25,617 nucleotides of DNA from Candidatus Hermodarchaeota archaeon (GTDB taxonomy: Archaea > Asgardarchaeota > Thorarchaeia > Thorarchaeales > Thorarchaeaceae). The notes under the pieces were generated by a model. It was not told the origin of the DNA. It did no database searches and saw nothing but the letters and a program-made list of their open reading frames with translations. A program made the translations under genes and the position numbers. How positions within the stretch are numbered: position 1 is the first letter of the stretch; every line of letters begins with the position of its first letter. This document shows positions 5,281 to 25,617 of this stretch, piece after piece. Where the stretch lies: NCBI GenBank assembly GCA_048885865.1, contig JBHLLF010000037.1, forward strand, positions 1-25,617. The letters are read 5' to 3'.

Positions 5281-6735
5281 CTATTCATAGAGGCTCTTAC
5301 GGCCTACAATTATACCGACTATTAATGATACAATGAAGCCTCCCACAGCCCCACCCACGAAGCCGAGCTCACTTTGTCCGGGAGGCGGTGGAGGTGGGTC
5401 GACATAGCGGATAACTGTATGAGTTGTAACCTCTATCTCACCCGCAATCAAGTCATGCACAATGGATTCCGCTTCCAATATTGCAGCTCTTGCTTCCAGT
5501 AATGCACGATGCATTTCATTGATTGAGGCCGACATTTCCCACCAGTCATGCACGCCTCTAGATCTATCTTCATTGAATAGCTCCACAGTGTCACGAGCAG
5601 TAGTGATTGCCAATTGAGCCATAGCTACAATTGTGGCATTCGCACCTAGGGTAGCTTCATACCGCAATGCTTGATTTTCAATATCATCGGCTAGGGACAA
5701 TAGCTCCAGTGTCATGGCTTCATATGTGTCATGTATGACTTGGAGCTGGCCAAGTACATAGGTCTCCATGCCCTTATGACAGAACTCACTTTGCCCACAC
5801 GCCGCTTCAGCATTCACATTGAAAGAGTGGTTCATGAATCCTTGGCCATTTGGCTGGATGCCATAGCCATGACAGTCAACACACATGACTCCAGCAAGTT
5901 GATGGGAGCTGCCAATCCAGATGTCGTACATTGGCTGGTCTGGACCAGAATGACAGATTCTGCAAAGTTCTGTGCTGTTCTCCGCTCTAATCATTGCTGG
6001 ATATGATGACCAGTTTGTGTGAACCGCATGACAGGCAGGACATGTAATCGTATTGTATGAGCCGTCCACAGAGAATGATGTATTCACTGCAGGTGAAAAT
6101 GTCGAGATGAATTCGGGATTCCGATAATAGACAAATGCCTCTGTGCTATGACAATACATGCATCCAGTCGTTGCATGTTCACTTGCCCTAAGGTCGGCTA
6201 ACGAGTTTGCATGAGCCGTGTTTCGCCATACAATATGTTGATGAGGACCCAAAGGTGCGCTGGGACTGTGGCAGGTGCTGCAAAGTGCGCCTGAATAGTC
6301 TGACCACTCAGACCATAAGGCATCATGACAAGCACGGCAGTCCACTCCAATATCATCGTAGGAACCAGTGATATTGTTGTATCCGCTCGTATGGCAAGCT
6401 GCACATTCTGAATCGAAGATTGTATAGCTGATATTCATATCGCCGCCGATCTGCACATGAGTTGCATTGATCTCAATGATGTGAGTAGCATGGCCTGTCT
6501 TTACCCAGGCGTTGTATTCTGCTGGATGGCATGGTGCATTCCCGCAGTTTGTGATATCTCCGCCGCCCATTCCGGGTGAGGACATACAGTTTTGCTTGTC
6601 AGTAGAATATCCAAGTGGAATGGGAATTGCTGGACCTGGTGACCCTAGAAGCAAACTGAATCCTGCTATGCATAGGAATACGTAGTATCCAAATACCCAC
6701 TTCTTTCGCTCGAGATTATTTGCATATCTAACCAT
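5281..6735 (-). CDS. Membrane-anchored extracellular multiheme c-type cytochrome (7 CxxCH + CX4CH + CX5CH)
   Basis: CAACH, CRACH, CSTCH, CMYCH, CPACH, CRICH, CVDCH, plus CGNAPCH and CGQSEFCH. N-terminal signal/TM, C-terminal helical region with DRSRGVH, poly-Pro linker and C-terminal TM. Many N-x-S/T sequons. Confidence 0.93.
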   Translation of the reverse strand: MVRYANNLERKKWVFGYYVFLCIAGFSLLLGSPGPAIPIPLGYSTDKQNCMSSPGMGGGDITNCGNAPCHPAEYNAWVKTGHATHIIEINATHVQIGGDMNISYTIFDSECAACHTSGYNNITGSYDDIGVDCRACHDALWSEWSDYSGALCSTCHSPSAPLGPHQHIVWRNTAHANSLADLRASEHATTGCMYCHSTEAFVYYRNPEFISTFSPAVNTSFSVDGSYNTITCPACHAVHTNWSSYPAMIRAENSTELCRICHSGPDQPMYDIWIGSSHQLAGVMCVDCHGYGIQPNGQGFMNHSFNVNAEAACGQSEFCHKGMETYVLGQLQVIHDTYEAMTLELLSLADDIENQALRYEATLGANATIVAMAQLAITTARDTVELFNEDRSRGVHDWWEMSASINEMHRALLEARAAILEAESIVHDLIAGEIEVTTHTVIRYVDPPPPPPGQSELGFVGGAVGGFIVSLIVGIIVGRKSLYE

Positions 6736-6779
6736 GAAGCTATCACCACGCGAGATGTCACATTCGGCTTCGAATCTGG

Positions 6780-6848: not shown

Positions 6849-6893
6849 GGGACTTTAATCAAATGCGCAGGATATTCCGGGAAGGAGCAAGGC

Positions 6894-7445
6894 TTGTCAA
6901 TAAGAACCCCGCGTTATATGTTCAAGATGGTCAGTTTGGGTGACGCGGCTACAGGTAAGACAAGCTGCATAGTCAGATACACCGAGAATAGCTTTGGGGA
7001 GTCGTATCAGGCAACTATGGGAACAAACATAGCAGTAAAGAATCTTCAAGTTGCCTTGACAGAAGAGAAGACTGTGCCGGTACAGATTGTTCTATGGGAT
7101 CTTGGCGGGCAACCAGATTTCAAGGAGCTTCGGCTGCGATATATGGCTGGAGCCAGTATTGCCTTCATCGTCTATGATGTGACGAATCCCAGATCGTTTC
7201 TTCATGTGTATGATTGGTATTCGAATTTCATGTCAGTGAATCCCGAAGCTACTGTGACTATAGTGGCCAACAAAATTGACTTGGAAGATAGGTGGGTACC
7301 TCCCGAAGCAGGACAAATGCTAAGTGATTGGCTTGACGTCACCCATGTTGAAACCAGCGCAAAAACAGGGGAGAATATTGAGGCCCTATTCACTGACCTC
7401 ATTGGCTCAGCAGTGAGAAAGTATCGTGACAGATCAATTGAGTGA
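6894..7445 (+). CDS. Rab-like Ras-superfamily small GTPase (eukaryotic signature protein)
   Basis: G1 GDAATGKT, G2 ATMG, G3 WDLGGQ, G4 NKID, G5 ETSAK. No C-terminal Cys prenylation motif. TTG start after AAGGAG. Confidence 0.93.
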   Translation: MSIRTPRYMFKMVSLGDAATGKTSCIVRYTENSFGESYQATMGTNIAVKNLQVALTEEKTVPVQIVLWDLGGQPDFKELRLRYMAGASIAFIVYDVTNPRSFLHVYDWYSNFMSVNPEATVTIVANKIDLEDRWVPPEAGQMLSDWLDVTHVETSAKTGENIEALFTDLIGSAVRKYRDRSIE

Positions 7446-7651: not shown

Positions 7652-9127
7652 CTATGGGACGAGGACTCCAGCTGCCAACGATGCATAGTCCAGGATTAGA
7701 CCGGGAAAGATGCCAATCATTATTGTAGCCACTACTGCAAGTAGCACAGCCGCAAGAGGAATCGTCGGAATTCGCAATGTTGTACCTTCTGTTGGTTCCA
7801 TGAAGTAGCAATACCTTAGGATTCTCAAGTAATAGCCAAGTGCAAATACTGAGTTTAGCACAGCAATTATCGCCAACCACCAAAGCCCAGCATCGACTGC
7901 AGCTCCAGGCAATAGGAACCACTTGAACCAGAATCCTGCTGTGAATGGTGCACCTGCCAGAGCAAAGACCATTATTGCCATCAATAGAGCAACAATCGGA
8001 GCACGAGTACTGAGTCCTTTCAAATCATCATATGTAACCTCTTTTCCAATGGAAACAGCCAATGCCCAAACCAGGATAAACGCGCCCGTCTTGATGAGTG
8101 CATGGGCAAACGCGGTAAACATCGCAGCTGCTGCTCCAAAGGCCGTTCCTGCTGCAATCCCCACGAAGAGTAGACCCATCATCATGATGGATGAGAAGGC
8201 TAACATTCTCATGATGTTGCGCTGAGCGAGTGCCAGAATATTCCCAATGATCATGGAAAGAATCGAGATAGTGACTACGACAGGCATCCATTCCATCTGT
8301 GCTGCAACAAATGCAACGAGTAGTATCCGAAGGAGGGCACTTACACCTGTCTTCTTGGTTGCACCAGCCAGATATCCTGTGACGCTTCCGTCAGCAGTTG
8401 CATACGCGTCGGGGACCCACATCCATCCTGGGAACACACCGACCTTGAATCCAAAACCGATCAGGAACAGCACCATAGACAGAAGCATTGCGTAGGCAGA
8501 CGGAGAAGCGGCGCTCCAGACGACACTAACAAATGCAGCAACAGCGGCAAAGCTTGTGGCACCTGTTGTACCATAGACAATTGCAATTCCAAATAGGATG
8601 AGAGTTGACGATAAGAGTCCCATGACGAAGTACTTGGTTGCTCCATCAATAGCTCCTCTGTGGGGCCCTAGCGCAACAAGCACATATGTCGGCGTACTCA
8701 TGAGCTCCCATGCCAAAAACAACGCCACAAGATCGGTTGCCATAACGACCCAAATTGCGCCAGCAAATGACATCATGAGGAGAAAGTTGTATGTACCCTT
8801 ATTTCCACCGTATGTCGTCGACGAAAGCAGTATTATGAATGCGACAACCAGAATGATCCAGATGAAGAAATCGCCAAACATGTCTCTTACAAATAGTCCT
8901 CCAAAGGAAGAACCCTGATCAATGAGAATCATCTCAAAGCCTGCAAGGGCAATGCCAATGAAACTGACTGCCAAAGGACTTCTTCTCATTCCTACAATGA
9001 GTGCCAAGATTCCGAAAAGGATGAGCGTCAAAGCTGGTAATGATACTAGCCAATCCGCTGGGACTAGTGCAAAGAAGGGACTCAAGATGTCGCTGATAGC
9101 ATCGATTATTGTGGAAACCTGTAGCAT
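7652..9127 (-). CDS. nuoN: Complex I-like subunit N (antiporter-like)
   Basis: About 14 TM helices; WELMS, GATKYF, FKVGVFP, WVPDAY, RMLAFSSI and TM12 FWFKW (Lys) motifs. Last gene of the cluster. Confidence 0.92.
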   Translation of the reverse strand: MLQVSTIIDAISDILSPFFALVPADWLVSLPALTLILFGILALIVGMRRSPLAVSFIGIALAGFEMILIDQGSSFGGLFVRDMFGDFFIWIILVVAFIILLSSTTYGGNKGTYNFLLMMSFAGAIWVVMATDLVALFLAWELMSTPTYVLVALGPHRGAIDGATKYFVMGLLSSTLILFGIAIVYGTTGATSFAAVAAFVSVVWSAASPSAYAMLLSMVLFLIGFGFKVGVFPGWMWVPDAYATADGSVTGYLAGATKKTGVSALLRILLVAFVAAQMEWMPVVVTISILSMIIGNILALAQRNIMRMLAFSSIMMMGLLFVGIAAGTAFGAAAAMFTAFAHALIKTGAFILVWALAVSIGKEVTYDDLKGLSTRAPIVALLMAIMVFALAGAPFTAGFWFKWFLLPGAAVDAGLWWLAIIAVLNSVFALGYYLRILRYCYFMEPTEGTTLRIPTIPLAAVLLAVVATIMIGIFPGLILDYASLAAGVLVP

Positions 9128-10671
9128 TATGGAATCACCCCTATCATATCGTTGACTATCGGTATCACTAGATTAAGCACAAGATCTGGCCATAGCCCGA
9201 GTATGATGACTGGTATCATCATCAAGATTGGTGCAATGAGATCACTCCATGGTGCTTCAGTGACTTCCTTCTCAGGATCAGGGTCACTGAACACAATTCT
9301 GTTCAGGGTCCAAAGGAGATATCCTACCGTGACAAAGATCCCAAAGGCGATGAAGCCGGACCAGATGTAGATGTTCACTGACCCAAACAGTACAAGGGCC
9401 TCTGCAATGAATCCGCTCATTCCAGGCAAGCCAAAGGCTGCAAAGACCGCGAGGATAAAGACAGCGGACATTCTAGGAGCTTTCGTCATGAGACCCATGA
9501 CATCAGGAATCAGTCTGCTTCCGGCCGAGTACTTCAGCTGGCCGGCAAGAATGAACATGACAGAAGAAATCATCCCATGGGATACCATCATGAATACTGC
9601 GCCCTGAACTGCAAGGCTAGCTGAGAAGAGTTGACCCTCTGTGGCTCCACCTCCAATGGCAAATCCTCCGATGGCAACTCCAAGTAACACCCATGCCATG
9701 TGGTTGATTGATGTATAAGCAACCATTGACTTCACATCTGTCTGGCCCATTGCTACGAATGCGGCGTAGATGCATGTGAAGACGGCGAGGACGGCGAATG
9801 GGATACTGAGTCGCGCAAATCCTTGCGGAACCATCCAGAGACCCAGTCTAATGAACCCGTATCCACCCATCTTCAAGAGTATTCCAGCGAGTATTACTGA
9901 GCCAGGAGTTGGAGCTTTTACATGGGCCCAAGGTAGCCAGTTGTGCAGAGGAAAGACTGGAAGCTTGACACCAGCACCCAGAAAGACTGCCAGTGCAAAG
10001 CCAATCTGAATGTTGATTGCAATTGGTGCAGCCTTGATCGCAATCATGTTGAATGTACCGGGTCCAAGGAAGAACAGCGCCATGAATGAGACCAACATCA
10101 CAGCTGAGCCAAGGTGTGTGTAGATGAAGAACTTGACAGCTGCGTGTTCACACCCCTCTTCGCCCCATCTTCCTATTATGAAGAACATCGGTATCAAGAC
10201 CAATTCCCAGAAGATGAAGAAGCTGATTAGATCAAATGACATGAATACGCCAAGCAGACCTGTCTGGAGCATCAGAAAGAACATGTAGTACAAGTGCTGC
10301 GATTTCTTGATATGGTTTGAACTGAGTGCTGCAATGAAGACCACGAGGTTTGATAGAAACACCATGGCAACGGATATTCCGTCAACACCTAGGTATATCT
10401 GGAGGAGAGCATTCCAGCTCCCAAATTGCACATCACTAAGTGTGAATGCCCATTCAAACCACATAGCTCCTGGATCTGGCAGAATTGCTACAATGAGGAC
10501 AAATGAAAGCAGGAGTTCAACGAATGTGACAATGAGCGTGAGAGCTCTGCCTCCTCTTGCACCGAGTATGTAGGCAAAGAATGCTGCAACCAATGGGGCA
10601 AATAGCATCAGTGGTAGTATGTTGTCCATTGGCAACATTGCGATGAGGTCCTGGATGAATCCGAGCTGCAT
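9127..10671 (-). CDS. nuoM: Complex I-like subunit M (antiporter-like)
   Basis: LGVDGIS, FFIFWELVLIPM, AVKFFIYT, VKLPVFPLHNWLPWAHVKAPT, LAGILLKMGGYG and GLPGMSGFIAE motifs. Confidence 0.95.
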   Translation of the reverse strand: MQLGFIQDLIAMLPMDNILPLMLFAPLVAAFFAYILGARGGRALTLIVTFVELLLSFVLIVAILPDPGAMWFEWAFTLSDVQFGSWNALLQIYLGVDGISVAMVFLSNLVVFIAALSSNHIKKSQHLYYMFFLMLQTGLLGVFMSFDLISFFIFWELVLIPMFFIIGRWGEEGCEHAAVKFFIYTHLGSAVMLVSFMALFFLGPGTFNMIAIKAAPIAINIQIGFALAVFLGAGVKLPVFPLHNWLPWAHVKAPTPGSVILAGILLKMGGYGFIRLGLWMVPQGFARLSIPFAVLAVFTCIYAAFVAMGQTDVKSMVAYTSINHMAWVLLGVAIGGFAIGGGATEGQLFSASLAVQGAVFMMVSHGMISSVMFILAGQLKYSAGSRLIPDVMGLMTKAPRMSAVFILAVFAAFGLPGMSGFIAEALVLFGSVNIYIWSGFIAFGIFVTVGYLLWTLNRIVFSDPDPEKEVTEAPWSDLIAPILMMIPVIILGLWPDLVLNLVIPIVNDMIGVIP

Positions 10672-10672
10672 T

Positions 10673-13000
10673 CTAGAGCACCCCCAGGGATAGTAGAACG
10701 ATTATGACCAGAATCCCAATCCCGAACATTATCACTCCAACGTAGTCATTGACTCGACCAGTCTGTGCAGACTGACTGGACTCTGAAGCGGCAACGCTGT
10801 ATGTAGAGACCCCTTCAGCAAAACCATCAACGACATTATCATCAAACCATTTCAGCTTCGTTGCTAGACCTTTGCCTGCGTCAGCAGACTTGAAGTCGAT
10901 ACCATCAATGATTTTGTTGTCAACATTCACTCGATAGCGTTCGGCCGCACTCAGGAATTTGTTCAGTATCCAATAGTAGAATTCGTTAATGTACCAACGA
11001 TGCTTCAGGAAGTTGTGCACCCTCCTCCTAAAGCCCTTCTCAGGTACCCAAGTGTTGGGAGTATCAGCACCCCTGATGTACATCACATATCCTGGAATTC
11101 CACCCAGAGCGAGCGCGCCTAGCGTGATCATGAAAGGCACGATTCCCGGATAGGTCAGCTTGACCTCTATCATATGCGCCAAGTTCTCAGCCCATGTATG
11201 ACTCTCTTCAAGCACAATGTTCTGAACGAACGGGAAGACAAGGAACGCAATGACAGTAAAGGCTGCTAGAAGATACAATGGCACCATCATTGCCGGACCT
11301 GGATCATGAGGAGTTGAATGATGCTGCTCTTCGAAGTGGTTGTCATGCGGTTCTTCATGCTTCTCTGAGTTACCTTCATGCGACTCTTCATGCTCCTCTA
11401 GGTCTTCATACTGCAACTCTTCATTGTCTTCTGGTTGCTCATCCTCATGTGAATCGTGTGAGTCTTGTGACTCATCATGGCCATGACTCTCCTTGGAAGG
11501 CCCATAGAAGGTGATACCCATGAGTCGAATGCTATAGAATATCGTGCAGGCAGCTGCCAGGACAGCAAAGAAGAATAGCATCCAACCTATCGGATTTGGC
11601 CATTCAACCGCCAGTTCATAGGCATACTCGATGATAGAGTCCTTTGACCAGAACCCTGAGAACGGCGGGATACCTGCGAGCGCAAGCACACCAATCCACA
11701 TCACGATGAAGGTCTTCCGCATGTATTGTTTGAGACCTCCCATCTTGGTGATGAACTTGGTATGAACGGCGTGTATAACGCCTCCTGATGCAAGGAATAG
11801 AAGGGCCTTGAATGCACCATGCGATATCACATGCATCACGCCGCTCAAGTACGCATCAGTGAAGTGAAGTCCCTCAGCCTGAAGGACGCCGCCCACACCT
11901 AGTGAGAGCATCATGTATCCAAGCTGGCTGAGTGTTGAGAATGCCAGTATCTGCTTGAGCTCGTTTGAGACCATTCCCATGGTCGCCGTCATGAGGGCAG
12001 TAATACCGCCGATGATTGCTACAAAGATGAAGAAGGTCAACGCTGCTTCAAACCCAATTGCCTGAAGTCCAGCGATATGTTCACCACCGTTGCCCTCACC
12101 ACCGGCTGCTGACACCATTGTGACCAGGAATCGAGCGGTGATATAGACACCCGCCTTGACCATCGTCGCAGCGTGGATGAGAGCTGAAACGCTTGTGGGA
12201 CCGGCCATAGCCTCCGGTAGCCAGACCTGCAGTGGAGCCTGTCCGGACTTGCCAATTGCACCCATGAAGATGAGTAGGAATGTAGGCACAAGCATCCCGA
12301 TGCCTGCCATGGTGCTCCACCATGATTGGGCATCAGCCGCCATCTCAGTGAAGGAGAATGTGCCAGTGAAGACGAACAGAATCAGGATACCGCCCAACAT
12401 GAATGCATCACCGATTCTCGTGACGACGAATGCCTTGGTCCCGCAGTGGGTGTTGTACTGTCCCTCGGTTTCGAATTGAAGAAGCGGGTTTGTGGAGTGA
12501 ATGTCTGATGGATCGGTCTCGGGAGGGTTCCTCTTGTCATTCCAGAATCCTATCAAACCATAGGAGCTGAATCCCATGATCTCCCATCCGATAAATGCAA
12601 TCAGAAGGTTGTTGCTGAGCACGAGAGTGAGCATTCCGCCACCGAACGCCAACATCAGGAAGAAGAATCGATCCCGGTCGCCCTCATGAGCCATGTACTC
12701 TGTAGAGTAGACATAGATGAGGAAACACAGAGTGCTGGCTAGAACCCCCATAACAACAGAGAGCGGGTCCAGGAGAACCTCGAACTCGAGTCCTAAGACC
12801 TCAATCCACATCCAGTGCGTGGTCTGGGTCGGGTTTCCAATCTCAGGTAGCAGCGACCAGCATAGAACCATAGAGATTCCCATGAGGATTGCAGGTGTCC
12901 AGTCTCGCGCTCGCTCGCTAAACCTTCCAACAAGTGGAACGAGGAGAGAGCCAAGCAGTGGAATCACGAGGATAAGCCAATAGGGTAGTCCAAGCAACAT
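10673..13000 (-). CDS. nuoL: Complex I-like subunit L with a His/acid-rich loop and an extended lateral helix
   Basis: LDPLS, GWEIMG, KAFVVTRIGD, GKSGQAPLQVWLPEAMAGPTSVSALIHAATMV, FSTLSQLGYM, FWSKD and QTG..Y motifs. ATG at 13000 follows GAGGTGA (track start TTG 13006). Confidence 0.95.
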   Translation of the reverse strand: MLLGLPYWLILVIPLLGSLLVPLVGRFSERARDWTPAILMGISMVLCWSLLPEIGNPTQTTHWMWIEVLGLEFEVLLDPLSVVMGVLASTLCFLIYVYSTEYMAHEGDRDRFFFLMLAFGGGMLTLVLSNNLLIAFIGWEIMGFSSYGLIGFWNDKRNPPETDPSDIHSTNPLLQFETEGQYNTHCGTKAFVVTRIGDAFMLGGILILFVFTGTFSFTEMAADAQSWWSTMAGIGMLVPTFLLIFMGAIGKSGQAPLQVWLPEAMAGPTSVSALIHAATMVKAGVYITARFLVTMVSAAGGEGNGGEHIAGLQAIGFEAALTFFIFVAIIGGITALMTATMGMVSNELKQILAFSTLSQLGYMMLSLGVGGVLQAEGLHFTDAYLSGVMHVISHGAFKALLFLASGGVIHAVHTKFITKMGGLKQYMRKTFIVMWIGVLALAGIPPFSGFWSKDSIIEYAYELAVEWPNPIGWMLFFFAVLAAACTIFYSIRLMGITFYGPSKESHGHDESQDSHDSHEDEQPEDNEELQYEDLEEHEESHEGNSEKHEEPHDNHFEEQHHSTPHDPGPAMMVPLYLLAAFTVIAFLVFPFVQNIVLEESHTWAENLAHMIEVKLTYPGIVPFMITLGALALGGIPGYVMYIRGADTPNTWVPEKGFRRRVHNFLKHRWYINEFYYWILNKFLSAAERYRVNVDNKIIDGIDFKSADAGKGLATKLKWFDDNVVDGFAEGVSTYSVAASESSQSAQTGRVNDYVGVIMFGIGILVIIVLLSLGVL

Positions 13001-13011
13001 TTTCAATCACC

Positions 13012-14529
13012 TCATGGAAGCAAGGTAGCTATTCCTTCTACACCAGGTATGATGACATCTAGTGCCAACCCTGGGAATATTCCAAACAACACAATGAGAA
13101 ATCCAAGGATAATCATCGGGGCAGTCATCCAATCAGAGCTCTCCTTGACATCCTCCAGTTCAGTTGGATGAGGTCCAAGGAAAACCTTCCAAAGATAACG
13201 GAGCATATACCCGGCACTCACTATTGAGCTTGAAACAGCCAAAATGGACAGGACAAAGAACTCGGGTCGTGCGAGCCCTCCTGATCCCATCAGAACTGCT
13301 TCAAAGCCCCCTAGAAACATCATCCATTCACTGGCGAATCCAGAAAGGGGAGGACTCCCTGCAATGCTCATTGCACCGATAGCTGCAGCGAATGCAGTGA
13401 TGGGCATTTTGTTTGAGAGACCGCCCATCTTGTCAACATCCCTCAGATGAGTCTGGTGAATCACCGCTCCAGCGGTCATAAACAAGAGTCCCTTGCTGAA
13501 GGCATGATTGATGAGATGAAACAGACCGCCAGCCACACCAAAAGTGGTAATCATGCCCAGGGCAAAGAGGACATATCCCATCTGCGACACTGATGAGTAA
13601 GCCAGCAGTCTCTTGATGTCTTTCTGGACAAGCGCCATAGCTCCTCCATAGAACATTGTGGCAACACCAAGCAGTCCAATCCAGAATGAGAGCGAGGCGG
13701 CTGCGGGTCCAAGCGTTATGATTCCGAAACGGACGAGAGCATATGCGCCGGTCTCAATCATTGCTCCAGATAGTAGAACAGAGATAGGAGTCGGTGCTTC
13801 TGCGTGAACTGGAGGCAGCCACCAATGCAATGGGAAAGCTGCCATCTTGACTAGGAAGCCGGCAGCGAACAGGATGAATATGATCTGCAACAGTCGTAGG
13901 TCTGACCAGATGGCTGGAGCCATTGCTAGAATAGAGTATAGCTCAAACGTACCCGTAAAGAAGTACAATAGACCCAAGGCAATCAATATACAGACTGCGC
14001 CAGCTTGAGTGTAGAGCCAGAACTTAATGGCGGTCCGTTTTCGGGTTTCAGGCAAGCCCCAAAACAGAATCAGGAAGTAAGATGGGACAAGCATGATCTC
14101 CCAAAAGATGAAGAATTCCAGCAAATTTGTTGCCAGCGTTACACCTTGCATTCCCATGATGAAGAATAACGTGTTTGCAAAGAATGTGGGCTTGTTCTCA
14201 GTATGTTCTGTGTAACCTACGGCATAAATCACCGAAAGAAACCCTAATACTACGACGGCAAACGTGATTGGGAAGGCAATCTCATCAAGGTAGAGACCAA
14301 ACTCCCCAAGTACAACTGACCAGGTGACTTTCTCAGCAGCTCTACCACCTTCCACCAGGACCCGGTAGAATGGAGGTACCATTAGCAATGCGCCCACTGC
14401 TGAGAATCCAACTGCCATCTTCCCTGATGTCTTTTCGAGTCGTCCGCGGAGTAGGTAGATCAAGAGACCTCCTATAAAGAGGACAAGCAAGGACAAGGTC
14501 ATGAATGGAAACTCGAACGACAGCTGCAT
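13012..14529 (-). CDS. nuoM: Additional NuoM/MrpD-like antiporter subunit (M')
   Basis: FFIFWEIMLVPSY, AIKFWLYT, VKMAAFPLHWWLPPVHAEAPTP, DIKRLLAYSSVSQMGY and GFASEW motifs. ATG at 14529 overlaps the nuoI stop (TGATG) after GGAGG. Confidence 0.85.
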   Translation of the reverse strand: MQLSFEFPFMTLSLLVLFIGGLLIYLLRGRLEKTSGKMAVGFSAVGALLMVPPFYRVLVEGGRAAEKVTWSVVLGEFGLYLDEIAFPITFAVVVLGFLSVIYAVGYTEHTENKPTFFANTLFFIMGMQGVTLATNLLEFFIFWEIMLVPSYFLILFWGLPETRKRTAIKFWLYTQAGAVCILIALGLLYFFTGTFELYSILAMAPAIWSDLRLLQIIFILFAAGFLVKMAAFPLHWWLPPVHAEAPTPISVLLSGAMIETGAYALVRFGIITLGPAAASLSFWIGLLGVATMFYGGAMALVQKDIKRLLAYSSVSQMGYVLFALGMITTFGVAGGLFHLINHAFSKGLLFMTAGAVIHQTHLRDVDKMGGLSNKMPITAFAAAIGAMSIAGSPPLSGFASEWMMFLGGFEAVLMGSGGLARPEFFVLSILAVSSSIVSAGYMLRYLWKVFLGPHPTELEDVKESSDWMTAPMIILGFLIVLFGIFPGLALDVIIPGVEGIATLLP

Positions 14530-14960
14530 CAACGGAACCTCCTTCCACGCCACTCAAGTGGGTCTCGATCGAGAGTTTCTATCTTGTCAGGACCGTAGAG
14601 TAAGTCCTCCCTCTCTCCTTCGCTAATATCTACAACCTGAGTGTGAAACAGTGCGTCAAACCTGCAAGCTTGAACGCATAGGCCACAGAATATACACCGT
14701 GTGTAATCAAAATAGAGGGCGGCGTCTTTCTCGAAATGCTTGTCACTCTTATCGATGCTAATAGCGACAACAGGACACGCACGTACACATTGCATACATG
14801 CAGTGCATTTCTCACGTACATGGATATGCCTTCCACGAGTCCTCTCGGGATATTCCCTGTCCTCGAAGGGATAGAAGTATGTGAATGGACGGGACATCAC
14901 TTGACGGAATATGTGTCTCAATATCTGGAATATGTCACCTAGATTTCTGAAGAATCCCAT
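14529..14960 (-). CDS. nuoI: Complex I-like subunit I, 2x[4Fe-4S]
   Basis: FTYFYPFE...RGRH, CTACMQCVRACP and CIFCGLCVQAC motifs. Confidence 0.95.
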   Translation of the reverse strand: MGFFRNLGDIFQILRHIFRQVMSRPFTYFYPFEDREYPERTRGRHIHVREKCTACMQCVRACPVVAISIDKSDKHFEKDAALYFDYTRCIFCGLCVQACRFDALFHTQVVDISEGEREDLLYGPDKIETLDRDPLEWRGRRFR

Positions 14961-14966
14961 CTTACT

Positions 14967-16097: not shown

Positions 16098-16111
16098 CGT
16101 GACACCTCCCA

Positions 16112-17248
16112 TCAGCGATCCCACCACCCTGGATACGGATCAAGCGATCCGAAAACGACAATGAAGTCTGCAAACTTCGCACCCGGAACCAGATGCTTCA
16201 GTGAATAGTAAGAGTTGAAACAGGGGCCACGTATCTTGGCCCTGTAAGGAGTCTGCGCCTTCTCAGTAGTCTTAAGCCAGAGGGTTGAAATTCCTCTTGT
16301 CCCTTCAACACGACCGTAGGCCTCACCTTCCGGAAGTCTGTTGGCCTTGGCACGTGCCTTGGGATCAATGATGGGGCCCTCGGGAACTAATGGTAGTAAT
16401 TTCCGGATTATCTCTGCTGAGGTTTCCATCTCCTTGAATCGCTGGACCATTCTGTCGTAGGCATCACTCTCTCCGGGGTGGTCCTCGCTCTCAGTAATTG
16501 GAACTTCCCAATCGATCATATCATAGGCAAGATTCGGGTCAGGGGAATCTTTGCGGAGGTCCATCGGCAGACCACATGCCTTGATTGGCGGACCGCTAAG
16601 ACCAAACTTCAGACCTTGCTTCAGAGTGTATTGACCAATGCCCTCTGTCCTTGCTCGGAAAGTAGGACTGCCCATAAGCATATCCCGCATCACAGGCATC
16701 CGATCTTCAAACCGCTCTAAAGCAATGTCAAGCTTCTTGAGCACCTTGTCTGTGAAGTCGTATTTCACACCACCGGGTGTGCTATAGGAAACGGCATGTC
16801 GGGACCCGCTGAGCTCCTCGAAAGTATCGAGGAAGAACTCACGGTCAACCCATGGCCACAGCAACATAGCGAATAACCCAAGCTCAGCTGAGAACTGACC
16901 CCACCAGAACTGCAACGAATGTATTCGGCTGGCCTCCATCATGATGGTTCGCATAACTTTCGCTCGTTCAGGTACTTCTAGTTCCGCAATCTTCTCAACC
17001 GCCATGATGTAAGGATACTCGGCCAGAAATGCCTCAAGCATGCAGAGCCGTTCCATGATAAGAGACCCTTGCCTGAAGTTCCTGTACTCCAAGCACTTCT
17101 CAGCTGATCGGTGGAAATATCCGGCGTTAGGGTCGCATTCTACTACAAAGTCTCCAACGAGAGTAAGTTTGGCGGCCCATCCGTGCGCAGATACGTGCTG
17201 AGGTCCGAACCAGACCTCGGTTGTTTCGTCTAGAATGTCAGGGCTCAT
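16112..17248 (-). CDS. nuoD: Complex I-like subunit D (no NiFe site)
   Basis: FGPQHVSAHG, GYFHRSAEK, RTEGIG, GLSGP, GEAYGRVEGTRG, PYRAKIRGP and C-terminal SLDPYPGWWDR. Lacks both CxxC hydrogenase motifs. Confidence 0.92.
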   Translation of the reverse strand: MSPDILDETTEVWFGPQHVSAHGWAAKLTLVGDFVVECDPNAGYFHRSAEKCLEYRNFRQGSLIMERLCMLEAFLAEYPYIMAVEKIAELEVPERAKVMRTIMMEASRIHSLQFWWGQFSAELGLFAMLLWPWVDREFFLDTFEELSGSRHAVSYSTPGGVKYDFTDKVLKKLDIALERFEDRMPVMRDMLMGSPTFRARTEGIGQYTLKQGLKFGLSGPPIKACGLPMDLRKDSPDPNLAYDMIDWEVPITESEDHPGESDAYDRMVQRFKEMETSAEIIRKLLPLVPEGPIIDPKARAKANRLPEGEAYGRVEGTRGISTLWLKTTEKAQTPYRAKIRGPCFNSYYSLKHLVPGAKFADFIVVFGSLDPYPGWWDR

Positions 17249-17766
17249 TCAGTCGCACCTCCTTCTGGTGTCTTTGAAGGCGTTCTGTCGGCCTCCTCGA
17301 GCCGGGCCCTATCTGTCACAAAGCTCTTCCTCAGAGGATATTTCCCTTCGAGCTCTTCAGGAAGCAGCAAAAGCCGGAGATCAGGATGTCCTTTGAAAGT
17401 GATTCCAAACATCTCCCAGGTTTCTCTCTCATGCCACTCCATGCCTGGGAAAATATCACAAATTGTATCCACCTCGGGATTGGTACCCTCAAGTGAAACT
17501 CGGAGGTGATATTGAGTTCTATTGGCTCGCGACCAGAATATGTAGATGACCTCATACTTGTCTTCTTGAAGGTCAACTCCAAAAACGCTCTCTGGAAATG
17601 CATCATCAATCTGCTCGTCAATCATCCCAACAACATCTCTGATCTTGTCCGCTGGTACTATGCACTCAAGGATACCATCTTCCTTTGGAGTACATTCAAC
17701 ACCAGGAAACTTGTTGACAATCTGCCTACCAAATGTGGCACCAGACATAGGAGCACCTTCAGACAT
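17245..17766 (-). CDS. nuoC: Complex I-like subunit C
   Basis: WHERETWEMFGITFKGHPDLRLLLLP...YPLRK signature. GGAGGA upstream. Confidence 0.93.
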   Translation of the reverse strand: MSEGAPMSGATFGRQIVNKFPGVECTPKEDGILECIVPADKIRDVVGMIDEQIDDAFPESVFGVDLQEDKYEVIYIFWSRANRTQYHLRVSLEGTNPEVDTICDIFPGMEWHERETWEMFGITFKGHPDLRLLLLPEELEGKYPLRKSFVTDRARLEEADRTPSKTPEGGATE

Positions 17767-18079
17767 CGATCTTATCCTCCTGTGAGATTGGTCTTCCTAG
17801 GTCCACTGTTCCATGCCGCCTATTGTAAGCAAGCATCAAAACTAAGGCTAAAGCAGTGTGAGCTGCGGCAACTGATATCATGAGAATGATGAGAGCCTGT
17901 CCTGTCAGCGTGAAGGTAGGGCTGTAGACTGCAAAAGCAGCTATAGCGATGCTGACTCCGTTCCCCATAATCTCCGCCCCAATTAGGATTCTAATGAGGT
18001 TCCTTTTCACCATCATTCCATAGGCTCCGAGGCCAATCAGGATGAATGCAACAGCAAGGTACCAAGAAAGCGGGACCAT
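17759..18079 (-). CDS. nuoK: Complex I-like subunit K
   Basis: 3 TM helices; GLGAYGMMVKRNLIRILIGAEIMGNG and GQALII..VAAA motifs. Confidence 0.92.
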   Translation of the reverse strand: MVPLSWYLAVAFILIGLGAYGMMVKRNLIRILIGAEIMGNGVSIAIAAFAVYSPTFTLTGQALIILMISVAAAHTALALVLMLAYNRRHGTVDLGRPISQEDKIDV

Positions 18080-18753
18080 TAGTCAGTCACCTCCTCACTG
18101 ACTTCCGCCTCAGGAGTTTCTTCTGGGGTCTCTTCAGGCTCCGGAAGCTCTTCTGGCTCAGGCTCAGGTTCTTCAGGTTCTGGTGCTGCTTCGATGCCAA
18201 ACTCGGCAACTATACCCTTCATCAGTTCTGCCTTATCCATCTTCATGAGCGCGATGACACCCACGAGAGATGTCACAATGATGAGTGCAATGAGTTGAAC
18301 ATAGATTCCGTGATCACCCCACAGCCACTCAGCGAGAAGAGCCACGTTGTTTGAAGCGTCTATTGTGCCTTCTGGAATTGTGTCACTCCATGGGAAGGTC
18401 AGGGCTAGAATTGCAGAGAGAAACACTATGGAGCCAGATACAAGTATACCAACCTTCTTTGCACGGGGCGACTCAATTGACTCGAGTGTGGAATCTTGTG
18501 CTCTTGGCAGCAGGAGAACACCGAATATGATCAACGCACTTATGCCTCCAGTATACACCGCAATCTGCATACCAGCAACAAAAGGTGCTTCCAACAAAAG
18601 GAAGAATCCAGCTACAAATGACGCCATGAACCCAAAGAAGAATGCAGCATAGACAATCTCTCTGTGCTCCAGAGCGAGGTAAGCTAGAACAATTACAATT
18701 CCTGCGATCAACAGAAACTCAACCGACTCGAATGCAGACTCAAATCCTTGCAT
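18079..18753 (-). CDS. nuoJ: Complex I-like subunit J with a Glu/Pro-rich tail
   Basis: IVYAAFF, LEAPFVAGMQIAVYTGGI signature, 5 TM helices, and a PEPEEPEPEPEE tail. Confidence 0.9.
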   Translation of the reverse strand: MQGFESAFESVEFLLIAGIVIVLAYLALEHREIVYAAFFFGFMASFVAGFFLLLEAPFVAGMQIAVYTGGISALIIFGVLLLPRAQDSTLESIESPRAKKVGILVSGSIVFLSAILALTFPWSDTIPEGTIDASNNVALLAEWLWGDHGIYVQLIALIIVTSLVGVIALMKMDKAELMKGIVAEFGIEAAPEPEEPEPEPEELPEPEETPEETPEAEVSEEVTD

Positions 18754-19211
18754 TAGTGATGTTCCCTCCCTGCTGTGTGTGGCTCTTCGAGATGTCTGGC
18801 TTTTGCAGCTCGATATGCCTCGAGAGTTTCCTTACCATCAAGTGAGGTTTGAGGCAGATACCTCATCGCGTATCCAATTGCACCCATGATAATCACAACA
18901 AAGATGAAAGTCTGCCAAGCGACTACTGGGTTCAACCGTAGCGGAGATACAGTAAGCAACCAGAGAAATGCGCCCATCACGTCTATGATGACAAAGAGAA
19001 TTGTATAGATGATGTAACTGTAGGGAAATGACATCCGTGCTGGTCCTATTGGCTCCTCTCCGCATTCATATGTAGATGTCTTCTCAGAGTTTTGAAGTAT
19101 ATGGGGCCGCAGAACCCATGATGCCAATAGCATGATCACAATCAGGACAATTACAAGAATGGCCCACACTAAGACTGGGATGAATTGGAGAAACAGCCTA
19201 TCTGTCTGCAA
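18753..19211 (-). CDS. nuoA: Complex I-like subunit A
   Basis: KTSTYECGEEPIG signature, LFVIID, 3 TM helices. GGAGG upstream of the TTG start. Confidence 0.92.
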   Translation of the reverse strand: MQTDRLFLQFIPVLVWAILVIVLIVIMLLASWVLRPHILQNSEKTSTYECGEEPIGPARMSFPYSYIIYTILFVIIDVMGAFLWLLTVSPLRLNPVVAWQTFIFVVIIMGAIGYAMRYLPQTSLDGKETLEAYRAAKARHLEEPHTAGREHH

Positions 19212-20004: not shown

Positions 20005-20550
20005 CTATTCAGTAGGAGCTTCCTCGGGTGATTCAGTTGATTCTTCAGCTGCGTCACTAGATTCTAGTTCAGGTGCCGCTTCTGACTCGGCTTCACCCTC
20101 ACTGGCTTCCTCTCCCACTGACTCAGGCTTAGGCTCAGGCTCAGGTACCGGCTTGTATTTGTAGTCGCTGACTTCCATAATTCCTGGAGTCACACTTACC
20201 TCCATTGGATCCAGCATTGAGAAGCCACCAGCCAGAAGGATTGCGCCGCCCATTCCCCAGGATGCATAGATGATGTCACTGCCAAAGTAGACCAAGGCAT
20301 AGATTGTGTAGAGAACTCCAATGACAATTGCCATCGAGAGCATGTTGACCTTTATCCTGCCTCGCTTCGGTCTGAAGTATCCTACGAGAAAGAACACCAT
20401 TACCAGCGGACCGCCAGCCATGAATGGGAAGTGCAGCGCCATTGCGGTATCGGCAATAGAAGCTAGCAGGAGGTCGAAGACATACGCACTTAGAATAATT
20501 GTGCCAATCAGTAGCATGCAGTACTGGTCACTGTCTTCACGCAATTTCAT
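20005..20550 (-). CDS. Hypothetical 4-TM membrane protein with an acidic tail
   Basis: ATGA overlap with the FAD-NuoB stop suggests translational coupling. Four TM helices and an E/P/S-rich C-terminus. Confidence 0.82.
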   Translation of the reverse strand: MKLREDSDQYCMLLIGTIILSAYVFDLLLASIADTAMALHFPFMAGGPLVMVFFLVGYFRPKRGRIKVNMLSMAIVIGVLYTIYALVYFGSDIIYASWGMGGAILLAGGFSMLDPMEVSVTPGIMEVSDYKYKPVPEPEPKPESVGEEASEGEAESEAAPELESSDAAEESTESPEEAPTE

Positions 20551-22694: not shown

Positions 22695-22757
22695 GAATCA
22701 TTGGACGGGCAGTGTGCCTAGAAGCTTCGATAAAGAAGACCCCCAGGTGGCATACCA

Positions 22758-25617
22758 TTGAAGTCCATTAAGAAAATAACAATAATCATTGCTTTCTGCT
22801 TTTTGGCAATTGGCCTAGTTGGCGCCTATACGGCATTAGGAAAGCCTGACTATACAGCTGAATGCGGAACCTGCCACACTACTAGTCCCTCCGATGTGAC
22901 TATTTCATCAAATGCGACAGGTACAGTAGACGCAGATTTAGGCTCACAATTCTCGCTTGTGGTATCATCATCAAGCGCTGCTACAAAAGCTGGTGACACA
23001 GCAACTGCTGTTTTGAGCGGATGGGCGGATAACAATCAGTTTTCGTTCACAGATCAGTCAATTCTTGACAACGACCCGGGGGACACAAATTCGAATATTG
23101 GCCAGATGACTGTTACGTTTGCGTTCACCCCAATAGCAGTAGGAACCTGGACATTGAGAATCTGGGCAGCAGCCAAAGGAGGGCATTCTGCGAGTCTTGA
23201 TGTCACAGTGTCGGTAACCTCGTCTGACTCAACACCCCCAACGATTGACAGTCCAGCTGACCAGATAATTGCTGAAGGGAATGGCAGTGCAAGTGTAACT
23301 TGGACCCCCAATGATGCGAATCCCAGCAGTTATGAGATTCTGGATAATGGCGCCACATTCCAGAGTGGTTCATGGGATGGCTCTCCAATCACTGCAACGC
23401 TTGGGTCCCTGAATCTTGGTACTCACACTCTTACTATTACCGTGTTTGATGCAGCAAACAATAATGCCTCAGATGAGGTTGGAGTGACAGTCTATGATGG
23501 CACCGTTCCATTGGTCGACAGCCCCGCTAATGTCACATATGATGAAGGGGCAAGCGGAAGCACAATCGTCTGGGACCCAACTGATCTCCATCCCTCTAGC
23601 TACGTGATTTATAGGGAGGGCACACCAATCAAATCAGGCAATTGGAATAGCTCAGCTGAAACGATTTCAATATTGGTTGAAGGAGAGAGTCTTGGGGAGT
23701 TTAATTATACAATTGAAGTCACTGATGTTGGCTCGAATTCGGTCACGGACACGGTTTGGGTGATTGTTTCCGATGGCACTCCACCAACAATCGATAGTCC
23801 AACGGATGTCAGCTTTAACGAAGGAGAAACTGGCATTGGCATAACTTGGGATCCAACAGACCTTCATCCCTTGAATTACACCATTTATAGAGATGGAGTT
23901 CCAATCAAATCTGGAACTTGGAACTCAAGTGTGGAAACAATCGCGGTTTCAGTAGAAGGGCTTTCACTGGGGGTATATGATTATATGCTGGAGGTTTTCG
24001 ATATAGGAGGGAACCCAGCAAGTGATGTGGTCCGGGTTACAGTAGGCGATGGCACTCCGCCGAATATTGATAGTCCCCCGAATGTGACATACGCTGAAGG
24101 CACTCCTCTTCAGTCAGTCACCTGGGATCCAACAGACAGCTATCCTCTGAACTATATCATCTACAGAAATAGCGTTCAAGTCAAATCAGGGACGTGGAAT
24201 GACACCTCCGAAACAATCTCGATTTCAGTAAGCGGCTTGGGTTTAGGGCTATATAATTTCACAATACTAGTCGCCGATATTGGATTAAACACCGCAAACG
24301 ACACGGTGTGGGTAGAGGTGTATGATGGCACTGCACCTACCATTGACCAGCCAAGCGATGCTCAGATATCCGAAGGCACACCCGGGAATAATGTCACGTG
24401 GAATCCCTTTGATCTGCATCCTTCGCATTATGAAATTTACCTGGAAGAAGTTCTCTTCAAGTCCGGATTATGGAACTCAAGCTCGGAATCCATCACAGTT
24501 TCCATTGATGGTTTAAGCCTTGGCGTTTATAATCTGACAATAGTCGTTTACGATTCAGCTGGATTCACCGCAGTTGATATGCTTGATGTGGTAGTGGTGG
24601 ATGGAACGCTTCCCTCAATCGATGAGCCAGCTGATGCGTTCTACCCTGAAGGAGAAGGAGGCCACAATATCACATGGACTCCATCAGACCTTCATCCAGT
24701 CAGCTATGTTGTCTACAATAATGAGACCCCGATAATGTCAGGAATCTGGAACTCGACTGGGGAAACTATTGTGGTATTCCTTGATGGTCTGGTAATTGGA
24801 CTCCATAACTTCACCCTGGTCGTAGCTGACATTGGAGGAAATACTGTATCTGATGAGGTGTGGGTGACCATCTTTAGCGCCGATGTCCCCACCATCAATG
24901 ATTTGCAGGACACAGATGTCGTGGAGGAGTCAATAGACAATTATCTGATTTGGAACCCCCTCGACCTTAACCCCCAGAGCTATGTTGTCTACAGGAACGG
25001 AACACTCTACAAGTCTGGTGCCTGGAATTCAAGCGCAGAGCTAATTCAAGTGCTGATTGATGGACTTGCCTTAGGTCGACATAATTTCACTATAGTCGTA
25101 ACTGACCAAGACGCAAATACTGCGACTGATATGCTATGGGTCATCGTTTATGATGGCACTCCGCCCAATGTGGATAACCCTGGAGACGTCTATTATGATG
25201 AAGGAAATCTCGGTAGCAGCATTACTTGGGATCCCACCGACACGAATCCAATCAACTATCTAATATACAAGGACGAGGTGCTACTCCAATCCGGAGTTTG
25301 GAATTCAACTTCGGAGACATTGACCATCATTGTTGATAATCTGCCAAGAGGAAGCTACAACTTCACGTTGGTGGTCTTTGATATCGGAGGGAATAGAGGA
25401 AGTGACACTGTGATGGTCTATGTAAGTGATGGCACTCCTCCGACAATAAACACTCCTCTAGATATCAACTACAATGAGGGCGATGCAGGTGGTAGCATTG
25501 TCTGGAATCCTGCAGACTCATACCCATCATCATTTGAGATTTATCTGAACGACGTACTTATCAAATCAGGGTTGTGGAATTCCAGTCTGGAAACTATCAC
25601 CATTTCAGTTACAGGTC
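22758..25617 (+). CDS. Large secreted surface protein: N-terminal monoheme CxxCH domain plus tandem Ig-like repeats; 3'-truncated and absent from the ORF track
   Basis: TTG at 22758 after AGGTGG. Translates MKSIKKITIIIAFCFLAIGLVGAYTALG-KPDYTAECGTCH..., and the repeat phase stays in this frame to the window end (>950 codons). Confidence 0.9.
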   Translation, partial: MKSIKKITIIIAFCFLAIGLVGAYTALGKPDYTAECGTCHTTSPSDVTISSNATGTVDADLGSQFSLVVSSSSAATKAGDTATAVLSGWADNNQFSFTDQSILDNDPGDTNSNIGQMTVTFAFTPIAVGTWTLRIWAAAKGGHSASLDVTVSVTSSDSTPPTIDSPADQIIAEGNGSASVTWTPNDANPSSYEILDNGATFQSGSWDGSPITATLGSLNLGTHTLTITVFDAANNNASDEVGVTVYDGTVPLVDSPANVTYDEGASGSTIVWDPTDLHPSSYVIYREGTPIKSGNWNSSAETISILVEGESLGEFNYTIEVTDVGSNSVTDTVWVIVSDGTPPTIDSPTDVSFNEGETGIGITWDPTDLHPLNYTIYRDGVPIKSGTWNSSVETIAVSVEGLSLGVYDYMLEVFDIGGNPASDVVRVTVGDGTPPNIDSPPNVTYAEGTPLQSVTWDPTDSYPLNYIIYRNSVQVKSGTWNDTSETISISVSGLGLGLYNFTILVADIGLNTANDTVWVEVYDGTAPTIDQPSDAQISEGTPGNNVTWNPFDLHPSHYEIYLEEVLFKSGLWNSSSESITVSIDGLSLGVYNLTIVVYDSAGFTAVDMLDVVVVDGTLPSIDEPADAFYPEGEGGHNITWTPSDLHPVSYVVYNNETPIMSGIWNSTGETIVVFLDGLVIGLHNFTLVVADIGGNTVSDEVWVTIFSADVPTINDLQDTDVVEESIDNYLIWNPLDLNPQSYVVYRNGTLYKSGAWNSSAELIQVLIDGLALGRHNFTIVVTDQDANTATDMLWVIVYDGTPPNVDNPGDVYYDEGNLGSSITWDPTDTNPINYLIYKDEVLLQSGVWNSTSETLTIIVDNLPRGSYNFTLVVFDIGGNRGSDTVMVYVSDGTPPTINTPLDINYNEGDAGGSIVWNPADSYPSSFEIYLNDVLIKSGLWNSSLETITISVTG
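23226..25617 (+). repeat. Intragenic tandem repeat with a 276-bp (92-aa) period: 8 complete units plus 1 partial
   Basis: Units start at 23226, 23496, 23772, 24048, 24324, 24600, 24876, 25152 and 25428 (first unit 270 bp). Consensus is approximately DGTxPxIDxPxDxxYxEG...IxWxPxDxxPxxYxIY...SGxWNSxxExI...GLxLGxYNxTxxVxDxGxN...DxVxVxV. Confidence 0.92.

Follow-up and report, generated by a model that had tools for sequence, protein, structure and literature searches.

A complex I-like pump with a NuoB-flavoprotein fusion and its linked cytochrome module: a possible fragment of a Thorarchaeal respiratory island

Results

Genes of the window

The stretch of DNA analyzed here (the window) is an entire 25.6-kb contig, C37, of a Thorarchaeota metagenome-assembled genome (MAG), G000, which comprises 3.58 Mb in 117 contigs and is 87% complete. 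The window carries a gene cluster for a complex I-like enzyme in which the NuoB subunit is fused to a flavin adenine dinucleotide (FAD) domain, and this cluster and the cytochromes encoded near it are the subject of this study. An initial annotation, made from the window sequence, had described a FAD-NuoB complex I with a second NuoM-like subunit (2M), a multiheme cytochrome beyond its 3' end, and an Ig-stalk protein with a heme motif upstream. It had read flavoprotein, complex I, and cytochromes as one electron transfer system, and had noted that the window holds neither a quinol:cytochrome adaptor nor a heme-maturation gene. A gene map built from an open reading frame (ORF) listing and from Pfam and NCBIfam scans of the window proteins confirms the arrangement (Table 1), and the ORF and family scans agree that adaptor and maturation genes are missing from the window.

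Table 1. Features of the window with coordinates, strand, and the evidence for each assignment
Feature	Coordinates	Strand	Evidence
Membrane-anchored nonaheme cytochrome c, OcwA/NrfA family, 484 aa	5281..6735	-	Nine heme motifs; family profile
Ras/Roc-family small GTPase	6894..7445	+	Pfam PF00071, E 7e-38
Four antiporter-like subunits, in the order NuoM-like, NuoL (777 aa), NuoM, NuoN	7652..14553	-	Four PF00361 matches; PF00662 on NuoL
NuoA, NuoJ, NuoK, NuoC, NuoD, NuoH, NuoI (Q-module and membrane heel)	14529..19211	-	PF00507, PF00499, PF00420, PF00329, PF00346, PF00146, Fer4
119-aa protein with four transmembrane (TM) helices	19546..19905	+	No Pfam family
181-aa membrane protein, acidic tail	20005..20550	-	ORF; no Pfam family
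FAD(GlcD/LctD-like)-NuoB fusion, 651 aa	20547..22502	-	Pfam PF01565 + PF02913 + PF01058; NCBIfam NuoB 168 bits, above cutoff
Surface Ig-repeat stalk protein, N-terminal CGTCH domain	22758..25617	+	ORF and motif; runs off contig end

Comparisons drew on 61 genomes, of which 37 belong to the family of G000 (G000 included) and 24 lie outside it. Its genus, g1, is represented by 17 genomes (G000 and 16 other species). For synteny, ORFs from long contigs of four relatives (G010, G015, G022, and G030) were compared with G000.

A NuoEFG-less pump with a fused NuoB

The eleven core subunits NuoA-D and NuoH-N are encoded together (Pfam families for all eleven, with NuoB and NuoD recognized by NCBIfam), and no gene for NuoEFG, the NADH-oxidizing N-module, was found in the window, NuoF not having been searched for genome-wide. 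The cluster is split into two transcription units, since the gene for the 119-aa four-TM protein lies on the opposite strand. This gene is kept in the same place, at 43-99% identity, in all four synteny relatives, and the 181-aa TM protein, whose gene start overlaps the stop of the fusion gene by 4 bp, is kept beside the nuo genes in the same four. NuoL (window 10673-13006) carries a very acidic, His-rich insert of ~60 residues (HGHDESQDSHDSHEDEQ...HHSTPHD) ahead of its C-terminal part, which is unusual for NuoL.

The fusion protein runs from the FAD domain through a hydrophobic linker of ~45 residues to a NuoB domain that keeps the four N2-cluster cysteines (CC...C...CP). It occurs in 25 of the 37 family genomes (22 full-length copies and three cut by contig ends, 74-98% identity); no copy was found in the 24 non-family genomes. 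The FAD domain has the FAD_binding_4 fold of D-2-hydroxyacid dehydrogenases (GlcD, LctD, LDHD) and is closest to LctD and LDHD, its best solved relative being LctD (7QH2_C, E 1.7e-27). When aligned with LDHD (8JDB), it has GYVNSPN and AHSTG in place of GHVGDGN and EHGIG, the metal-site motifs of D-2-hydroxyacid dehydrogenases, the region being aligned with low confidence. Because the metal-site residues appear to be replaced in this low-confidence alignment, a lactate-type substrate is doubtful. In G010, G022, and G030, the divergent neighbor of the fusion gene is a CCG/Fer4 (HdrD-like CCG/Fe-S) gene. Genus g2 encodes a FAD-only homolog (56% identical, ~500 aa, lacking NuoB; G017:C3:116444-117931 and G032:C64:10881-12362) 1.5 kb from MenA, which may be an unfused precursor or a split form of the fusion.

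NuoD keeps the His of GPQHxxxHG, and the quinone-site Tyr of the complex I motif RLDY is replaced by Met (RLCM). The NCBIfam models NuoD and FpoD score highest on this protein, and its best PDB match is MbsL (6U8Y_L, E 3e-57). Assignment as the large subunit of a Group 4 [NiFe] hydrogenase (Mbh/Ech) was rejected, as the Ni ligands are absent: when RLCMLE and DPYPGWWDR are set against RxCGxC and DPCxxC, a single Cys remains in the first and the other has lost its Cys residues.

Routes for ferredoxin oxidation other than this complex are scarce. The other NuoB-like gene in the genome adjoins a NiFe large subunit (RLEGHG) and a HdrA-like ORF and, as read from sequence with no family scan, is probably part of a cytosolic Mvh/Hdr-type hydrogenase; the complex is the only membrane NuoB-family enzyme. 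Because G000 is incomplete, Rnf and HemC were searched for across 37 genomes, and ALAD and Mqn were searched for again in five better relatives. In this search, the 17 genomes of genus g1 yielded no Rnf (PF03116), which turned up only in two genera without the fusion (genomes G017 and G021). Rnf and the fused complex may thus be alternative pumps, for which n = 2 gives only a hint.

Cytochromes of the OcwA/NrfA family

The window cytochrome has an N-terminal and a C-terminal TM helix and nine heme-type motifs, namely CX4CH at residue 64, seven CXXCH, and an invariant C313...C319-H320, the motifs at heme sites 1 and 9 being of the stretched CXnCH type. All nine motifs, and the His residues that align with axial heme ligands of OcwA and NrfA, are invariant across 23 sequences. 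An AlphaFold model from a 23-sequence alignment had a predicted local distance difference test score (pLDDT) of 48 and did not reproduce the heme core; this is too poor for a fold search, and a sequence profile of the family was compared with the PDB instead. The best match was OcwA (6I5B, E 9.7e-19), followed by NrfA (1OAH, E 3.6e-14) and octaheme reductases; matches to Pfam c554 and c552 also scored above their cutoffs. The profile match places the protein in the NrfA/OcwA family of multiheme cytochromes c. The archaeal family itself was seen only in Thorarchaeota, as 21 clusters in a set of 5.8 billion proteins.

A genome-wide CXXCH scan found only two multiheme ORFs in G000, the window copy and a 42%-identical paralog on contig C46. 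The chance that a multiheme ORF would fall 0.9 kb from a 15-kb operon is roughly 1%. An assembly chimera was rejected as the source of the window cytochrome, as relative G008 has the same gene order. The gene forms its own transcription unit, since the plus-strand GTPase gene separates it from NuoN. On C46, the operon order is cytochrome paralog (5110-6573), a 726-aa anchored protein, and a CcmF/NrfE-type lyase, which scores best against NrfE-type lyase models. The 726-aa protein (C46 2752-4932) is secreted, has a C-terminal anchor and no Pfam family, and gives weak hints of a GH88/epimerase-like alpha-toroid; its gene always lies between cytochrome and CcmF in seven genomes.

The paralog on C46 and those of G010, G015, G022, and G030 have CxHCM or CxHCQ at heme site 5, which is the position of the catalytic CXXCK heme of NrfA and of the open heme 5 of OcwA. 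The window copy has CMYCH there, and CXXCK is absent from these cytochromes. The label "NrfA nitrite reductase" that NCBI gives to homologs was rejected as a membership call on this ground and is not safe as a function call.

The stalk ORF, divergent from the fusion gene, encodes a signal anchor, CGTCH at residue 36, and Ig/PKD-like repeats of ~92 aa. Its ortholog in G015 is 95% identical, 1224 aa long, and has a C-terminal TM anchor. The N-terminal domain is homologous to the heme-motif domain of the adaptor candidate described below (30% identity, E 3.4e-11).

A candidate quinol-to-cytochrome conduit

The initial annotation had proposed a genome search for cytochrome b or NrfD-type adaptors. 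Family searches of G000 found no NrfD, Ni_hydr_CYTB (PF01292), Cytochrome_B (PF00033; bc-type), or cytochrome bd. What the genome does contain is a 397-aa protein (C74:1318-2511) that consists of a signal anchor, a C-x4-CH motif, two beta-sandwich (Ig) domains, and four TM helices. It belongs to a family in which a beta-sandwich domain bears a C-x(2-5)-CH motif, and this member ends in four His-bearing TM helices; a 231-aa anchored protein, also on C74, is homologous to its heme-motif domain. Residues C39, C44, and H45 and five TM histidines (TM1-3) are invariant across 33 homologs, and four of these histidines are also invariant in stand-alone copies of the TM domain (137 aa), which are found inside GlcD/CCG clusters. 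We regard this protein as the leading candidate for the quinol-to-cytochrome conduit that the window lacks.

In an AlphaFold model (pLDDT 78), the anchor at the N terminus is followed by a pair of beta-sandwiches and then by a TM bundle of four helices. Of the four invariant histidines, the one in TM1 sits at the outer end of its helix and the one in TM2 close to the cytoplasmic end, and TM3 carries the other two, ~8-11 residues inward from its outer end. In the model, this layout would fit at least one bis-His heme. A Pfam scan of the TM domain gave only b561 at E 0.035 and matched no cytochrome b family; nor was any such match seen in 39 relatives. An exhaustive profile search with the TM domain returned 57 representatives, none in a Pfam family, and the ESM Atlas gave no usable match. 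Fold searches with the model found only generic Ig/FN3 domains and four-helix bundles (Z ~12), and by these searches a cytochrome b fold is neither claimed nor excluded.

Linkage and phyletic pattern in other genera

Across the compared genomes, the pump genes belong to an island. This island contains the cytochrome, 726-aa protein, and CcmF genes; CcmE to CcmA; a geranylgeranyl reductase (GGR), a polyprenyl synthase, and MenA; four pairs of CCG/Fer4 (HdrD-like) and GlcD-like FAD proteins, an amine-oxidase-like flavoprotein, PNPOx-like proteins, and the adaptor candidate; and the CCG/Fer4 gene divergent from FAD-NuoB, the nuo genes, the Ras GTPase gene, and the ACD gene. In the draft genome G000, it is broken over contigs C46, C66, C74, and C37.

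The gene order differs between genera and the linkage is kept, the cytochrome module lying 0.3-41 kb from the complex in four genera. In G022, the cytochrome-726aa-CcmF operon directly follows NuoN at a distance of 1.1 kb. In G030, it directly follows FAD-NuoB (0.27 kb), with the rest of the nuo genes 23 kb away. In G010 and G015, 31-41 kb separate it from the fusion gene, and the stretch between them contains CcmE-A, GGR, polyprenyl synthase, MenA, and the GlcD/CCG pairs. In 11 genomes, which represent at least 10 genera, the MenA-like gene lies within 1.4-4.4 kb of the fusion gene.

The cytochrome is present in 15 of the 61 genomes, 14 of which have the fusion; the remaining one, G020, shows a match to the FAD part only. 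The adaptor candidate also occurs in 15 genomes, and 14 of these are shared with the cytochrome. Ccm genes are present in all 15 cytochrome genomes and in four incomplete congeners, and in none of the cytochrome-less genera that bear the fusion. Cytochrome, Ccm, and adaptor thus form a co-inherited accessory module in genus g1 and a few others.

Cytochrome maturation and quinone genes

Lack of a cytochrome c maturation system was among the findings that the initial annotation would have taken as refuting it, and this is not the case. A System I Ccm set (CcmA, B, C, E, and CcmF/NrfE) is encoded at C66:9676-12602 and C46:662-2734. On contig C66, CcmA, CcmB, and CcmC are accompanied by a small ORF for a TM protein and by CcmE, which bears CPSKY, the motif of the archaeal type. 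Matches to Pfam CcmB and Cytochrom_C_asm are above their cutoffs and those to NCBIfam CcmA, CcmC, CcmE, and NrfE are below. The ccm genes adjoin genes for a MenA-like prenyltransferase, a polyprenyl synthase, and GGR, and a full-length UbiE/MenG-like methyltransferase gene lies elsewhere in the genome. The 3' part of the MenA-like gene is interrupted in G000 by a run of N (C66 ~6389-6500); the G010 ortholog is intact at 354 aa.

Other features of the window

The Ras/Roc-type GTPase, a eukaryote-signature protein, keeps its place in G008, G010, and G015, where its gene likewise comes right after NuoN, on the opposite strand. At window positions 242-1840 lies the gene for a 532-aa protein with a signal anchor, a beta-rich ectodomain, TM helices, and no Pfam family; a CxxC...CxxCH segment in it resembles a zinc ribbon, and its tail is long and acidic. 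This gene is kept in G008, G010, and G015, where it adjoins a response-regulator gene.

Discussion

A proposed electron transfer chain

From the gene content, the homologies, the linkage, and the phyletic pattern observed above, we infer which cofactors would be bound, what carrier, donor, and acceptor would be used, and in which direction electrons would flow. Our leading reading, which we hold with slightly less than even confidence, is that the window is a fragment of a Thorarchaeal respiratory island, in which electrons would pass from the pump to a prenylquinone, then to the adaptor, to an OcwA-like cytochrome, and to an acceptor outside the cell. The conserved core is a complex I-like ion pump that is linked to MenA and devoid of NuoEFG, has four antiporter-like subunits, and carries a GlcD/LctD-type flavoprotein domain on its NuoB. 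The accessory module comprises System I Ccm, OcwA-like nonaheme cytochromes anchored at the outer face, and C-x(2-5)-CH beta-sandwich proteins. Reduced ferredoxin at NuoI, an organic substrate at the FAD/HdrD-like module, or both would deliver electrons to cluster N2, from which they would reach a prenylated naphthoquinone-like carrier with concomitant ion pumping. The quinol would be oxidized by the His-rich TM domain of the adaptor, and electrons would move through its putative outer heme c to the nonaheme cytochrome(s) and perhaps the heme-tipped stalk, and on to an extracellular or soluble acceptor. Heme and the quinone head group would come by scavenging.

Textbook midpoint potentials give ~-72 kJ per electron pair for ferredoxin to menaquinone, which is enough for ~five ions at a proton motive force of <=150 mV, and ~-22 kJ per electron pair for D-lactate to menaquinone. 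As the first suffices and the second does not, the best-supported chain would run forward.

The initial annotation had offered two models. In one, ferredoxin would be oxidized in the forward direction through a lipid carrier. This fits better, given the tight MenA linkage. In the other, which we take here in an adapted form, electrons would be driven in reverse: quinol or a fairly high-potential substrate would be oxidized via FAD/HdrD-like modules, and the four-pump arm would spend ion motive force to push electrons through N2 and NuoI to ferredoxin for anabolism, with the cytochromes as a parallel downhill sink. The four antiporter-like subunits agree with reverse transport, and 2M-type complexes were reportedly argued by Chadwick et al. 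in 2018 to favor such flow; the island also holds four GlcD-like flavoprotein genes with CCG/Fe-S partners, and the closest solved relative of the FAD domain is LctD of the confurcating Ldh/Etf complex. Against it, no independent generator of ion motive force was identified, and the apparently replaced metal-site residues of the FAD domain (from the low-confidence alignment noted above) make a lactate-type substrate doubtful. In the version without a lipid carrier, as first proposed, there would be no known coupling site and the tight MenA linkage would be ignored. We regard reverse transport as improbable.

Evidence against the chain

A number of observations weigh against the forward chain from pump to surface cytochrome. 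On the energetic side, a lactate-type donor could not drive five pumps. On the pump itself, the NuoD substitutions (Met for the quinone-ligating Tyr and Cys for the adjacent Asp) are kept in four genera, and quinone reduction is not assured because NuoD lacks the quinone Tyr and has as its best solved match MbsL of the sulfur-reducing MBS. For the adaptor, heme b binding by the TM domain, which has no Pfam family and only generic four-helix bundles as fold matches, is suggested only by the positions of its histidines.

The two adjacencies in the window are also young. The window cytochrome is a clean single-gene insertion of ~1.57 kb between the Ras and ACD genes, which abut with no cytochrome between them in the two closest relatives, G015 (fusion 98% identical) and G010 (96%). 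When the other 16 species of the genus were searched, only G008 proved to share the insertion, which is also seen in two metagenomic clusters. The stalk gene is likewise lineage-specific, being found beside the fusion in G015 and absent at that place in G010, G022, and G030. Both genes are recent, separately transcribed insertions. The one-system proposal of the initial annotation, which had called for a check of the neighborhood in relatives, is partly supported: linkage in other genera favors it, with a cytochrome-Ccm module near the complex wherever contigs permit a check, and the two neighbors seen in the window do not. Absence of cytochromes from relatives with the same complex had been named as a refuting result, and such relatives exist: in nine genomes from other genera, which are 91-98% complete, the complex and MenA are present and neither Ccm nor cytochrome nor adaptor was found. 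It follows that the cytochrome branch is accessory and that the pump does not need cytochromes. Since MenA is linked to the fusion in the 11 genomes that include these nine, the prenyltransferase is the ancestral and tightest partner of the pump.

The nine genomes and the insertions would also be expected if there were no dedicated link at all, that is, if the pump used MenA with some other acceptor, or passed electrons to a soluble acceptor, either at the FAD/HdrD module or at a site like that of MBS, and the cytochromes were an independent trait carried in the same flexible island. The MbsL-like NuoD is in line with this, as is the stand-alone four-TM copy, which sits in GlcD/CCG clusters and not in the nuo operon. 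The cytochromes might then be, for example, an NrfA/OcwA-type reductase or detoxifier of nitrite, hydroxylamine, or sulfur compounds, fed by GlcD/HdrD via a His-rich subunit; the CxHCM/Q of the operon paralog at the NrfA catalytic heme position points this way, and OcwA itself reduces nitrite and hydroxylamine (PMC6703420). Set against these points, linkage is kept through three different rearrangements, including adjacency to NuoN in G022 and to FAD-NuoB in G030, and the fusion accompanies the cytochrome in all cytochrome genomes except G020. In addition, one shared quinone pool would already make the parts one chain. We consider the absence of a dedicated link, and the separate detoxifying role that goes with it, unlikely.

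A further set of difficulties concerns the supply of cofactors. Searches of six genomes that have the cytochrome (G000 and the five better relatives) found no ALAD. The 37-genome search recovered HemC from two more distant relatives and from no member of the family among the 23 searched, G000 included. These organisms very probably cannot make heme. MqnA/D was not found in the same six genomes, and MenB in G000 had only matches at the level of enoyl-CoA hydratases, none above cutoff, MenD and MenF not having been searched for. By the searches for MqnA/D and MenB, the known routes to a naphthoquinone head group were not found, and of the quinone genes that the initial annotation proposed to look for, the MenA-like and UbiE/MenG-like ones were recovered and these were not.

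One could take the gap in heme synthesis to mean that the CxxCH proteins are not functional cytochromes and that their motifs bind another metal, form disulfides, or are relics, a view with which the variable spacing of the first motif, C-x(2-5)-CH, would agree. The full Ccm set is nevertheless kept and co-inherited with the cytochromes, and the nine motifs and axial-ligand-aligned histidines do not vary across the sequences compared. Organisms that are auxotrophic for heme and use scavenged heme are known. We therefore judge nonfunctional cytochromes very improbable. The ALAD/HemC gap in G000 and 22 family relatives, despite Ccm and cytochromes, suggests heme auxotrophy with scavenging, and the simplest reading overall is that heme and the quinone head group are both scavenged while Ccm, cytochromes, MenA, and MenG are kept.

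A broader proposal can be made, which we offer tentatively as it is somewhat unlikely when taken as a whole. A subset of Thorarchaeota would be facultative anaerobic respirers with a lineage-specific chain, dependent on neighbors for heme and the quinone head group. The three undescribed parts of that chain, put forward with the same reserve, would be a five-site pump with a NuoB-flavoprotein fusion, conduits that combine heme c on an Ig domain with a His-rich four-helix bundle, and OcwA-like surface cytochromes on long Ig stalks.

Significance

Thorarchaeota, and most Asgard archaea outside Heimdallarchaeia, have been modeled as fermenters or acetogens without cytochromes. The island gives these supposed fermenters a possible route to respire onto outside acceptors such as minerals, humics, or partner cells, with a bearing on syntrophy models of eukaryogenesis. 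This is limited by the optional nature of the cytochrome branch and by the recent origin of the adjacency in the window. If the proposal is true, extracellular or interspecies electron transfer with cofactor cross-feeding would be part of Asgard ecology, and heme, a naphthoquinone precursor, and an external acceptor would be handles for cultivation.

Comparison with known systems

The literature searched contained no account of a FAD-NuoB fusion in Thorarchaeota, of the cytochromes that go with it, or of the adaptor family. Ferredoxin-dependent 11-subunit complex I/Fpo-like complexes are known from Methanothrix, Methanomassiliicoccales, and photosynthetic NDH-1. Like these and the 2M variants, the enzyme described here has NuoABCDHIJKLMN without NuoEFG, a second NuoM-like subunit, and an enlarged NuoL; it differs in the FAD-fused NuoB, the NuoD without the quinone Tyr, the two extra small TM genes, and the tight MenA linkage. 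A menaquinone link and a terminal acceptor yet to be named have likewise been proposed in other Asgard lineages: for Sif- and Jordarchaeia, NuoEFG-less ferredoxin-dependent complexes, menaquinone, an "unidentified terminal acceptor", and many Dld+HdrD pairs were put forward (PMC9723677). Other complex I-like enzymes have been described in Heimdallarchaeia (10.1101/2024.07.04.601786).

MBS, the membrane-bound sulfane-sulfur reductase of Pyrococcus furiosus (6U8Y), resembles the pump in that MbsL and NuoD share an R-x-C motif and both lack the NiFe ligands and the quinone Tyr. It differs in its membrane arm, which is Mrp-type, whereas the arm here is Nuo-type (NuoA/J/K/H/L/M/N). The GlcD-like FAD proteins of the island have CCG/Fer4 proteins as partners, along with a small membrane subunit that bears histidines, and in this they recall the membrane-linked HdrDE, GlcDEF, and Dld-HdrD flavoprotein dehydrogenases. 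The adaptor candidate resembles eukaryotic DOMON- and Reeler-cytochrome b561 ferric reductases in that a beta-sandwich redox domain on the outer side is joined to a helical bundle with histidines, a likeness that is architectural only, as the outer domain of the adaptor has a c-type motif and not a heme b pocket.

The closest parallel for the cytochromes is OcwA, the surface terminal reductase of Thermincola potens JR, in which a c554-like tetraheme part is fused to an NrfA-like pentaheme part (PDB 6I5B; PMC6703420). OcwA reduces iron oxides and electrodes and has weak activity with nitrite and hydroxylamine (PMC6703420). The archaeal protein differs from it in having N- and C-terminal TM anchors and stretched motifs at sites 1 and 9, and in the CxHCM/Q of the operon paralog at site 5. 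Both proteins have an N-terminal c554-like part, an NrfA-like part with long C-terminal helices, and nine heme sites, and OcwA is, as the archaeal protein would be, exposed outside a cell that has no outer membrane.

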